Position numbers and translations under genes: made by a program. Shown here one piece after another: positions 16,155 through 17,695 of a DNA stretch of 64,000 nucleotides (position 1 is the stretch's first letter; each line of letters begins with the position of its first letter). The DNA comes from Escherichia coli (lineage in GTDB: Bacteria > Pseudomonadota > Gammaproteobacteria > Enterobacterales > Enterobacteriaceae): assembly GCF_013315695.1 (NCBI RefSeq), contig NZ_CP054353.1. One strand, given 5' to 3'. The notes below the pieces were generated by a model that saw only the letters and a program-made list of their open reading frames with translations, was not told where the DNA came from and did no database searches.

Positions 16155-16232
16155 CTGGCGAACAAAATCGCCGCTGCGCGGTACCCTCGGCTTATCCCTT
16201 GCGGCTACCGGGTCGGGCGCGAGGTAACATAT
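16155..16232. repeat. Left arm of an imperfect GC-rich palindrome flanking the IS
   Basis: TGGCGAACAAAATCGCCG (16156-16173) and GGGCGCG (16215-16221) are mirrored by CGGCGATTTTGACGCCA (17679-17695) and CGCGCCC (17627-17633). Confidence 0.5.
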
Positions 16233-16243
16233 ATGGACGCTCC
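16233..16243. repeat. IS right-end terminal inverted repeat plus AT core (ATGGACGCTCC on the plus strand)
   Basis: An exact inverted copy lies at 17598-17608, and a third copy at 17531-17540 overlaps the recombinase RBS/start. Confidence 0.7.
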
Positions 16244-16271
16244 CGGAATGCAATGCTTTCTTCAGTTATGT

Positions 16272-16455
16272 AATAAAACGGGTAGGTGCAGCCATATATC
16301 CGGTTTCTGATGGGATTTTTATCCCGAACCATGATGAAATCCGCCAGGCAGGTACCAATCATCCTCTACGGGCTAACTTGCCCTTGTTACCTCTCGGTGT
16401 ATCCTGCCTGCGGTCTTACCTGTTTTGCCATCTTCTGAAGTCACCTGCACCTACC
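16272..16455 (-). ncRNA. Candidate bridge/seek-RNA-like structured ncRNA in the IS 3' non-coding end
   Basis: An 11-bp long-range stem pairs 16445-16455 with 16281-16291 and is followed by UUUUAUU. Nested inside is a roughly 15-bp bulged stem (16399-16413 / 16341-16356) enclosing an internal loop capped by a GGGC/GCCC hairpin, plus a second GGGAT/ATCCC hairpin. The loop segment CGAGAGGTAACA (16385-16396) matches flank CGCGAGGTAACA (16218-16229) at 11/12. Confidence 0.45.
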
Positions 16456-16503
16456 AGGACGTTAACTTTTTTTCAGCACCTCGTCAGATTGACTGACCTT
16501 GTG

Positions 16504-17529
16504 TCAGGCGAGCTGCCGAGGTTGATATTCAGTATTGTGTGACAACATTGACCACATGATCCTCGCTGTTTTTGCCGCCATGGCGACAACAGCTACATTG
16601 TAGTGCTTCCGCTCAAGGAGTCCCTGAAGCCAGGAATTCTCCTCAACCGCGCCGTTTCGGTTGACCCAGGCGGTAAGTGCGCGTGCGCCGTGAACCAGCA
16701 GGTATCGGAAATATCCATCTCCACGTTTGCTGATCCCTCCCAGTTGCTGTTTCCCGCCGCTGGAATGTTCCTTTGGTGTCAGCCCCAGCCATGAAGCGAA
16801 CTGCTTTGCGGTACTGAATTGTCGGGCATTACCCACTGCTGCTACCACATAAGTGGCCGTTAGCATGCCAACCCCCGGGATCTTGGCCATTCTCTGGCAG
16901 GCTTCCTGCGTTCTATACCAGGAGGCCAGAGCTTCTTCTACCTGTTTAACTTGTTCTTCAAGTTCCCGGATATGTTTAGACTGTCTGTAGATGCTGGTTC
17001 TGACAAAGGGAGATAAACCATTTTCGCCATCCTCCAGAATGGCTGGCAGCTCACGTGTTAAATGGCTTTGTCCGGCCGCAATCGTAATACCAAACTCAGC
17101 AAGTGTGGCTCTTAAACTATTGGCACAGGCAATCCGCTCACGGATAAGTATTCCCCGTTCAGTGTGTAACGCTAAAACGGCCTGCTGCTCTTCGGTTTTT
17201 ATCTGAACAAAACGCATATTCGGACGGGTTACCGCTTCGCAGATTGCTTCAGCATCTGCTGCATCCGTCTTGTTCGTTTTCACATAAGGCTTCACATACT
17301 GCGGAGGTATGAGTTTTACCTCATGACCATAGCGGGTGAATAATCGCGCAAAATAATGACTGGATGAGCAGGCTTCCATGCCAATCAGACAAGGTTCCAG
17401 TTGAATCACAAACTGAACAAACTTAGCCCGGGTGAGCTTTTTACGCAAAATAGTATGGCCTTCATGATCGACACCATGAAGCTGAAAAACGTTCTTTGCC
17501 AGGTCGATACCAAGAGTTGATACTTTCAT
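16504..17529 (-). CDS. IS110-family DEDD recombinase/transposase
   Basis: A 341-aa ORF with N-terminal RuvC-like motifs (GIDLAKN, GMEAC, KTDAADAEAI) and a C-terminal GLTPKEHSSGGK...GISKRGD domain carrying the conserved Ser. It is clearly related to the IS621 class. Confidence 0.9.
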   Translation of the reverse strand: MKVSTLGIDLAKNVFQLHGVDHEGHTILRKKLTRAKFVQFVIQLEPCLIGMEACSSSHYFARLFTRYGHEVKLIPPQYVKPYVKTNKTDAADAEAICEAVTRPNMRFVQIKTEEQQAVLALHTERGILIRERIACANSLRATLAEFGITIAAGQSHLTRELPAILEDGENGLSPFVRTSIYRQSKHIRELEEQVKQVEEALASWYRTQEACQRMAKIPGVGMLTATYVVAAVGNARQFSTAKQFASWLGLTPKEHSSGGKQQLGGISKRGDGYFRYLLVHGARALTAWVNRNGAVEENSWLQGLLERKHYNVAVVAMAAKTARIMWSMLSHNTEYQPRQLA

Positions 17530-17597
17530 GTGGACGCTCCTAATTTTTCAGGACGTATTGCAACGATCCAGTCTGGTACTTTGATACCGTAAAATCT

Positions 17598-17608
17598 GGA
17601 GCGTCCAT
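17598..17608. repeat. IS left-end terminal inverted repeat plus AT core (GGAGCGTCCAT on the plus strand)
   Basis: It is the inverted copy of 16233-16243. Confidence 0.7.
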
Positions 17609-17695
17609 CTCATTATCCCTGTAAAACGCGCCCTCAGCCCACATCCATGTGGGCTGCCCCGGCCTTCAGGGAACGCCTCGGCGATTTTGACGCCA
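17609..17695. repeat. Right arm of the imperfect GC-rich palindrome flanking the IS (contains its own 10-bp perfect palindrome CAGCCCACAT-cc-ATGTGGGCTG at 17635-17656)
   Basis: See the left arm (16155-16232). Seen directly in the sequence. Confidence 0.5.

Follow-up and report, generated by a model that had tools for sequence, protein, structure and literature searches.

An ISEc81 isoform splits a hybrid TRIP1/Replication Risk Sequence at a chromosomal inversion junction of Escherichia coli, probably through RNA-guided target choice

The stretch of Escherichia coli DNA considered here, 64,000 nucleotides of contig NZ_CP054353.1 (assembly GCF_013315695.1; hereafter the window, whose numbering is used for all coordinates not otherwise labelled), carries an insertion sequence (IS) lodged in a GC-rich intergenic repeat between aqpZ (15294-15989) and dusC (17761-18708). 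Strains AF3 and MSB1_4I match the window at 100% identity, and SMS-3-5 does so at 99.2-99.6%. The two genes are 1.31 Mb apart in K-12, and their adjacency recurs in SMS-3-5 and KFu014. The IS is an isoform of ISEc81, of the IS1111 group of the IS110 family, and the repeat is TRIP1, which is the same as the Replication Risk Sequence (RRS). It seems to us probable that the element reached the RRS loop by the choice of its own seekRNA. The hybrid flanks now surrounding it were joined by an inversion of the terminus region.

The IS occupies 16230-17615 on the minus strand (1386 bp), with its ends set against the uninterrupted sites of K-12 and KFu014. It is inserted between the A and the T of ...GAGGTAACA|TCCCTG..., a position ambiguous by up to 2 nt owing to the A/T common to the IS and the target; beyond this common A/T, the two empty sites show no doubled bases, i.e. 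there is no target duplication. The transposase gene (16504-17529, minus strand) codes for a DEDD recombinase of 341 amino acids, with Pfam matches to PF01548 (E 3.3e-15) and PF02371 (E 1.1e-24) and the RefSeq product name 'IS110 family RNA-guided transposase'. In a comparison made at the protein level, 337 of its 341 residues are identical to the ISEc81 transposase of the ISfinder-derived FASTA (supplement file 6, PMC11187229). Two subterminal inverted repeats of 11 nt (I15, 100% complementary) pair with each other: that of the right end, ATGGACGCTCC on the plus strand (16233-16243), is 3 nt from the IS end (ATA in IS orientation), and that of the left end, GGAGCGTCCAT (17598-17608), is 7 nt from the transposase-proximal end. 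These last 7 nt are the terminal extension CTCATTA (17609-17615; TAATGAG in IS orientation), as defined by the empty sites of K-12 and KFu014. The non-coding stretches of the IS measure 274 nt downstream of the transposase gene (tnp) versus 86 nt upstream.

In the IS1111 group, transposases have 330-350 amino acids and the non-coding region is longer downstream of tnp; a 7-nt left-end extension is a trait of the same family (Siddiquee et al. 2024, PMC11187229). The element of the window shows the same protein domains, transposase length, subterminal repeats with extensions, downstream non-coding region, fixed site and orientation, and lack of duplication. Compared to the ISfinder reference of ISEc81, it is alike in length class, subterminal repeats and downstream non-coding region, and it differs by four amino acids. 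No description of the ISEc81 target was found in the searchable literature, where the name occurs only in three resistance-genomics surveys. When the IS ends are joined (16230-16232 plus 17609-17615), as they would be in a circular intermediate, they form a perfect TATAAT with TTGCAT 16 nt upstream; this would be consistent with the junction-promoter feature reported for ISEc11, and it is no evidence of a circle itself.

Uninterrupted copies of the host repeat are found in the aqpZ-lysO and yohP-dusC spacers of K-12, both reading ...GGGCGCGAGGTAACATCCCTGTAAAACGCGCCC..., and the true empty site is GGGCGCGAGGTAACA|TCCCTGTAAAACGCGCCC. An earlier account of the window, made from its letters alone (the sequence-only reading), had placed the IS at 16233-17608, which is off by 3 nt at one end and by 7 nt at the other, and had taken as target the stretch ctcattat, which is IS sequence. 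The empty site that it reconstructed, with ATCTCATTAT, was 10 bases too long when compared to K-12 and KFu014. It had looked forward to finding uninterrupted copies of the repeat and other copies of the IS at the same position, and it was right on both counts: of 5426 complete E. coli genomes, 5384 have uninterrupted copies (median, 3 places per genome), and other IS copies occupy the same site in the same orientation in other copies of the repeat.

Concerning the identity of the repeat, which had been suspected to be an unclassified family, it already has two names in the literature. TRIP1 was found by Rudd in 1999 and surveyed by Li et al. 2024 (PMC10888264), who report 1-5 copies per genome: TRIP1a between aqpZ and ybjE/lysO, TRIP1c between yohG/mdtQ and yohI/dusC, and also copies b, d and e. 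The first two of these lie in inverted orientation and share 94% identity along about 266 bp (PMC10888264). The RRS was described by Pham et al. 2023/2024 (PMC10287960, PMC11194060) as two 222-bp inverted copies placed ~650 kb either side of dif, with a G-quadruplex (G4) on the lagging-strand template that triggers post-replication gaps with RecA/SSB loading; it was reported to be conditionally essential, at least one copy being needed. The repeat of the window agrees with both descriptions in its loci (downstream of aqpZ and of dusC), in 92-99% sequence identity, in the G4 motif and in the TRIP1a/c inversion of SMS-3-5. It differs in that the window copy is split by an IS and in that a copy between yegH and asmA lies outside the published loci a-e. 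No IS or transposase within the element is mentioned in the TRIP1 or RRS papers. With respect to REP and ERIC, NC_000913.3 has no annotated repeat at the K-12 copies, no consensus scan having been made, and an identity with REP/BIME or ERIC was ruled against, as the literature names the element TRIP1/RRS.

The two parts of the split repeat come from different copies. The left part (16052-16229, plus strand) starts just past the aqpZ terminator and ends at the insertion point; it matches the K-12 aqpZ-lysO spacer at 96.5% identity, unique aqpZ-proximal sequence included, and K-12 TRIP1c at 91.6%. The right part (17616-17700, plus strand) is 98.9-99.1% identical to the K-12 yohP-dusC spacer and runs on into unique dusC-proximal sequence. 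The window RRS is a hybrid, its left half being TRIP1a and its right half TRIP1c. The sequence-only reading, which treated the flanks as one interrupted unit, was correct in that both belong to the same repeat family and incorrect in that they are not halves of the same copy. The left part contains a hairpin with the G4 motif at 16112-16149 (minus strand), formed by an inverted repeat of 12 bp without mismatch (I10). Its G-runs are on the minus strand, which reads GGGGGGGCAGGGGGCGGCGG at 16130-16149 (complement, CCGCCGCCCCCTGCCCCCCC), with one substitution relative to the published RRS G4, 5'-GGGGGTGCAGGGGGCGGCGG. The G4 motif is 85 bp away from the IS. The window version of the motif has C for A on the plus strand (CCCCCTGCCCCCCC), with one G-run lengthened to seven in comparison with K-12.

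The flanks had also been described as the arms of a single palindrome of ~165 bp with the IS at its apex. The four strings quoted in support are indeed in place: TGGCGAACAAAATCGCCG at 16156-16173, CGGCGATTTTGACGCCA at 17679-17695, GGGCGCG at 16215-16221 and CGCGCCC at 17627-17633. The outer arms were recovered by a repeat finder as inverted repeat I5 (16163-16178 with 17674-17689, 16 nt, 88% complementary). When the left arm (16156-16229) was aligned globally to the reverse-complemented right arm (17616-17695), 47 of 82 columns were identical (z = 3.7), a score equalled by 1 of 2000 mononucleotide shuffles. The complementarity of the arms is real, mostly in the outer 17 bp and in the 7-bp GGGCGCG stem. 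Nevertheless, with only those 47 of 82 columns matching, the structure is not one long palindrome but a multi-helix, Y-shaped element; 'imperfect palindrome' is a fair first description of a Y-shaped domain that spans 158 columns.

The uninterrupted K-12 copy folded as DNA at -72.7 kcal/mol (z = -6.07; none of 200 shuffles as good), and its fold as RNA gave z = -5.57. A family alignment was built with eight reconstructed members: K-12 TRIP1a and TRIP1c, the two inversion junctions, the yegH-asmA copy, a reversed aqpZ-lysO copy and two from Kluyvera. Their consensus fold has 79 pairs in 13 helices, with 97% of cells paired. A basal stem (helix 1, 16156-16173 with 17679-17695, 95% of cells paired) leads to an inner stem that carries two apical hairpins, and these are followed by two further hairpins, that of the G4 and that of GCGCTCC...GGAGCGC (helix 12, 16062-16111, inverted repeat I6). 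Apical hairpin 1 (17635-17656) is invariant. Apical hairpin 2 is made of its left stem GGGCGCG together with the first 8 loop bases, AGGTAACA (16215-16229 in all, invariant in 8/8 members), the remaining loop (17616-17626) and the right stem CGCGCCC. The insertion point is inside the 19-nt loop of this second apical hairpin. So, the earlier claim that the IS sits in the loop of a structured GC-rich host repeat was well founded, except that this is the loop of one of two apical hairpins. Likewise, the similar stretches GCGGTACCCT and GCGTTCCCT each lie within one strand of the inner stem, but they are not mutual pairing partners.

Compensatory changes were found in 13 pairs of the consensus fold, versus 3.6 +/- 1.4 in shuffled alignments, none of 500 reaching 13; the number fell to 0-2 when the partners were slid by 1-3 columns. 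They occur in the inner stem, in the hairpin holding the G4 motif and, with three pairs, in helix 12. The sample is small and its members are related, which makes the covariation supportive rather than conclusive. It suggests selection on base pairing, beyond the G-quadruplex alone.

The site and the orientation of the IS are constant. In six other Escherichia contexts, recovered via the exact transposase sequence, the junctions are identical to those of the window: lysO-IS-aqpZ, a reversed RRS between aqpZ and lysO, both inversion junctions, yohP-IS-dusC and yegH-IS-asmA. Identical junctions occur at three loci of Kluyvera genomosp. 3, with ISEc81-like copies 96-97% identical in protein. In relation to the repeat, tnp is always on the strand opposite to that of the G4 complement in the window. 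The yegH-asmA context is a diverged RRS-like copy beside a RelE/helix-turn-helix toxin-antitoxin pair (L009, L010, L013 and L014, ~2780-4540; L018, 3286-5064); its stems contain compensating substitutions and its G-runs are weaker, the hairpin being kept. In the reversed context (L011, CP070152.1, 2769-4611), the entire RRS with its IS is turned around between aqpZ and lysO, with TTAGCATTG ... CAATGCTAA at its limits and other sequence in place of the usual aqpZ terminator. Either a local inversion or an RRS acquired independently may account for this arrangement.

The distribution of the IS was determined in the same 5426 complete genomes, with locus-specific counts taken from queries with long unique flanks. 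ISEc81 is present in 179 genomes. The arrangement of the window, aqpZ-IS-dusC (junction A), is occupied in 84 genomes, and the reciprocal arrangement, lysO-IS-yohP (junction B), also in 84; a second ISEc81 copy at junction B was confirmed in SMS-3-5 and KFu014 (L007, 13858-16707; L021, 14303-17152). The yegH-asmA copy is occupied in 77 genomes, and the non-inverted lysO-IS-aqpZ and yohP-IS-dusC arrangements are found in 8 and 10, respectively. Junction A is empty in one genome, KFu014, whose junction B is occupied, and junction B is empty in none. Among the 5426 genomes, there is no inverted one lacking the IS at both junctions. In three strains, CE10, XJ6.1 and JNEC-KY178, both RRS are occupied and there is no inversion, which is the state expected of a precursor.

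The segment inverted between the two RRS measures ~1.3-1.4 Mb and is centred on dif. As dif is at the same distance from both RRS, the inversion is symmetric with respect to the terminus and the orientations of the hybrid RRS are kept. The TRIP1a/c inversion of SMS-3-5 had already been described by Li et al. 2024 (PMC10888264), who ascribed it to recombination between TRIP1 copies. It seems to us somewhat better supported that the IS came before the inversion, an order that would run as follows. Both RRS would have been occupied first, as in CE10; homologous recombination across the inverted IS+RRS repeats of ~1.65 kb would then have inverted the terminus region, and KFu014 would later have lost one IS copy by precise excision. 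This order is favoured because no IS-free inverted genome was found, because KFu014 is identical to SMS-3-5 around the empty junction, and because the precursor state exists.

The case of KFu014 (L019, NZ_CP091712.1, 3490-3874) deserves closer consideration. Its junction A is uninterrupted, with exactly the IS missing, and it shows 0 mismatches to SMS-3-5 (L004) over 3730 + 3685 bp of flank (7.4 kb). The IS is present at junction A in the more distant window strain. Given that the flank of KFu014 is that of SMS-3-5 and that the window strain is occupied, an excision is more parsimonious than a primary absence. The empty junction of KFu014 is thus probably the product of a natural, precise excision that restored the RRS loop.

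The opposite order has to be weighed: bare TRIP1a and TRIP1c would have recombined, as proposed by Li et al. 2024, and ISEc81 would have entered the hybrid RRS afterwards. We regard this as plausible, if on the unlikely side. The two copies are inverted repeats with 94% identity over about 266 bp, KFu014 is inverted with junction A uninterrupted, and once one IS copy was present the other RRS would have been a perfect target. Nonetheless, no inverted genome lacks the IS at both junctions; the 0 mismatches of KFu014 over 7.4 kb make loss by excision the more parsimonious account of its empty site; and the non-inverted, doubly occupied genomes, CE10 included, offer ~1.65 kb of near-identical homology versus ~0.27 kb at 94%. 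Several points weigh against an IS-first order all the same. The inversion looks like a single ancestral event of one clade (99.2-100% identity), so that the association of the IS with the junctions amounts effectively to one observation. KFu014 is inverted with only one junction occupied. The recombination between TRIP1 copies envisaged by Li et al. is compatible with the flanks of junctions A and B, which are identical over at least 70 nt (the extent compared) on the G4 side and ~50 nt on the other; over this extent beside the IS no single-nucleotide polymorphisms separate TRIP1a from TRIP1c, so the crossover cannot be placed.

As to how the RRS loop is chosen, the 3' non-coding region of the IS contains a candidate seekRNA or bridge-RNA domain (16281-16455, minus strand) closed by a perfect 11-bp stem (16281-16291 with 16445-16455, I20), whose RNA fold was calculated at -65 kcal/mol (z = -2.78). 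Within this domain, on the 5' side of an internal loop, lies a candidate target guide, RNA GAGGUAACA (16385-16393, minus strand, I18; GAGGTAACA in IS orientation). It is an exact 9-nt complement of the target strand TGTTACCTC, abutting the right end of the IS. In shuffles, a 9-nt duplex touching the junction was obtained 478 times out of 20000 (2.4%, p about 0.024). In the proposed mechanism, an RNA from the 3' non-coding region would pair through this segment with the target strand beside the junction, and the hairpin around the site would be incidental or at most auxiliary to the guide pairing. The first base after the right end of the IS is C for T in two copies (L011, 4301; L025, 3797); there the last base of the guide would mismatch, and variation at that position would be tolerated.

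Distant relatives of the element show a similar arrangement. Their IS ends were set by finding the subterminal repeats in 14 copies, representing 13 distinct elements (L027 = L028); BLAST between copies was unfit for this purpose, as their targets are themselves repeated. Five distinct relatives, with 41-53% amino acid identity and unrelated targets, have in the 3' non-coding region a complement of 7-11 nt to the right flank. These complements begin within 2 nt of the junction, and three of the five matches are of at least 9 nt, while the chance of such a match per element is estimated at ~0.005 (4 offsets x ~300 positions / 4^9). In IS1111 elements, the seekRNA was shown by experiment to be essential, and the element can be retargeted by changing the RNA; the mechanism has been demonstrated for four members (Siddiquee et al. 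2024, PMC11187229).

A further copy of ISEc81, degraded and shortened internally by ~56 bp, is found away from any RRS, on the IncFIB plasmid NZ_CP076707.1 (L102, 1498-2816), beside an S6-family peptidase gene. Its flank ...CTGTGAGGTAACA|IS keeps all 9 nt of GAGGTAACA, with no GGGCGCG/CGCGCCC stem, and its other flank, TTCCGG, has only a partial likeness to the TCCCTG of the RRS. Taken together, the 9-nt complement, the same arrangement in relatives, the plasmid copy keeping the 9 nt and the published mechanism indicate that the target is most likely chosen by seekRNA pairing. For the same reasons (the guide-like complement of the IS, the relatives, and the plasmid site with its 9-nt match outside the RRS), the preference for palindromes offered by the sequence-only reading is probably not the targeting rule.

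Some observations speak against guide pairing. No right-flank match of at least 7 nt was found in 8 of the 14 copies of relatives, which wrong end calls may explain. In known seekRNAs, a match to the top strand stands 5' of a match to the bottom strand of the target (PMC11187229); here the bottom-strand match is of only 5 nt (GGAUG or GGGAU), not significant by shuffles. The missing second guide may account for a specificity that appears to exceed that of a 9-mer alone, or else the structural context may contribute. The boundaries and the fold of the seekRNA are predictions, the latter with a z of only -2.78. Finally, sequence and structure are inseparable as long as nearly all the sites are the same RRS loop, the plasmid site excepted. 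The 7-nt CGTTTTA, tried as a second guide, was at chance level. In an Rfam scan of the window region, no bridge or seekRNA family was found, only a chance match to mir-611.

This leads to the possibility that structure directs the choice, i.e. that the transposase recognises the extruded hairpin or cruciform of a palindromic repeat, the guide complementarity being a coincidence. Such recognition was formerly suggested for IS110-family elements that insert into REP, attC or the inverted repeats of transposons. The site is in the loop of a 7-bp GC stem within a strongly structured element, every chromosomal site found is that loop, and the 9-nt match on its own has a p of only about 0.02. Against these stand the plasmid insertion, with the same 9-nt flank and neither stem nor RRS, the relatives with unrelated targets that carry matching complements in their non-coding regions, and the essential and reprogrammable character of the seekRNA in IS1111-type elements (PMC11187229), all of which leave recognition of structure improbable. 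A last reading takes the GC-rich flanks for the long inverted termini of a larger mobile element, with the transposase gene inside it. In its favour, each flank is in part an inverted copy of the other, and the IS is always found with them, except on the plasmid, where they are lacking. Against it, the joined flanks occur without transposase at fixed loci in 5384 of 5426 genomes versus 179 with the IS; this larger transposon was rejected on the empty sites and its probability is negligible.

With respect to the surroundings of the locus, an IS1A-family element is placed between ybjD and aqpZ (~14247-14944) by the RefSeq annotation of AF3, an identical strain; it is absent from the ybjD-aqpZ spacer of SMS-3-5 and KFu014. 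On the other side, a gentisate-pathway cluster is found beside dusC, from 18770-21347 onward, with genes for 3-hydroxybenzoate 6-monooxygenase, maleylacetoacetate isomerase, a fumarylacetoacetate hydrolase family protein and gentisate 1,2-dioxygenase; in K-12 and SMS-3-5 it is yohJ that follows dusC instead.

The ISfinder-listed IS, the seekRNA mechanism, the TRIP1/RRS repeat and the inversion of SMS-3-5 were already known. In the searchable literature, we found no link between ISEc81, or any IS, and TRIP1/RRS, nor any report of the splitting of the RRS in ~90 complete genomes, of the IS at both junctions or of its probable natural, precise excision; the connection of ISEc81 with TRIP1/RRS appears to be new. 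For the RRS field, its value lies in the number of sequenced strains (roughly 90 complete genomes) whose two terminus-flanking RRS are both split, at 85 bp from the G4. On a more speculative and rather doubtful view, taken up below, the occupied strains (the 84 inverted genomes and non-inverted ones such as CE10) would be natural tests of the reported conditional essentiality of the RRS, and they would suggest that half an RRS, the one with the G4, is enough or else that the function of the RRS can be dispensed with. The split RRS and the covariation of its stems are both relevant to the reported need for at least one RRS, and the covarying stems would mean that something beyond the G4 is under selection. 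For the field of IS110 elements and bridge RNAs, the system would offer a guide and its target as a pair found in nature, the targets being very few, conserved and already studied for their function, together with a likely natural precise excision and a candidate natural megabase inversion between oppositely oriented copies.

Compared with known RNA families, the RRS shows a likeness to TwoAYGGAY (Rfam RF01731). A full-length match was obtained on the minus strand of K-12 TRIP1c (L003, 3230-3381; equivalent in the window to 16166-16229 + 17616-17705), with 30.9 bits versus a gathering score of 43; its E value was 0.006 in a 501-nt search, and it was not listed at E <= 0.1 in a 17-kb search. 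With a score below the gathering threshold and a match lost in the larger search, the RRS was not accepted as a member of the family. The minus strand of the RRS has, like TwoAYGGAY, a basal stem with two consecutive hairpins, here with loops AUGGAU and AGGGAU, and its stems covary. The extra 3' hairpins and the multi-copy intergenic spread resemble the extended form of Pseudomonadota. The differences are the second loop, AGGGAU instead of AYGGAY, and the very low copy number; an action of the RRS as RNA would be hypothetical. In the Kluyvera RRS, both loops are AGGGAU. Extended TwoAYGGAY elements present in several copies have been described from Pseudomonadota in a 2026 preprint, where a function as Csr/Rsm sponges is put forward as speculation; Escherichia and the RRS are unmentioned there.

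The minus strand of the RRS is the sense strand of dusC, in whose 3' untranslated region the RRS would lie, and ISEc81 inserts within the second of its two GGA-containing loops. On this strand the two invariant loops read ACAUGGAUGU and ACAGGGAUGUU. Both resemble high-affinity CsrA sites, with the consensus RUACARGGAUGU obtained by systematic evolution of ligands by exponential enrichment. It is tempting, although rather doubtful, to go further and regard ISEc81 as a dedicated parasite of the RRS that supplied the homology for the inversion, the RRS being perhaps an enterobacterial relative of TwoAYGGAY in which a CsrA-like loop is interrupted.

Among mobile elements, the closest comparison is with ISEc11, ISKpn4, ISPa11 and ISPst6 (PMC11187229), with which ISEc81 shares the DEDD transposase, the 7-nt left extension, the 3' non-coding region and the absence of duplication. 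In those elements a short RNA is complementary to the target beside the junction, as is the candidate of ISEc81. The target of ISEc11 is GTGAAAATACTG, whereas that of ISEc81 is the hairpin loop of the RRS. The predicted RNA domain of ISEc81 is of ~175 nt, compared to 82-96 nt in the elements with an experimentally shown seekRNA, and, unlike in these, a second, bottom-strand match is not evident. Precise excision with restoration of the target, suggested by KFu014 for ISEc81, was undetected for ISEc11 (PMC11187229). Concerning the fixed position in a structured intergenic repeat, ISEc81 is like two other members of the IS110 family, IS621 in the REP of E. coli (Choi et al. 2003) and ISPpu9 in the REP of P. 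putida. IS621 differs from ISEc81 in belonging to the IS110/Piv-like branch, in having its non-coding region upstream and in its lack of subterminal repeats. The targets differ too in number, as REP elements occur in hundreds of copies, while TRIP1/RRS offers only 1-5 per genome.

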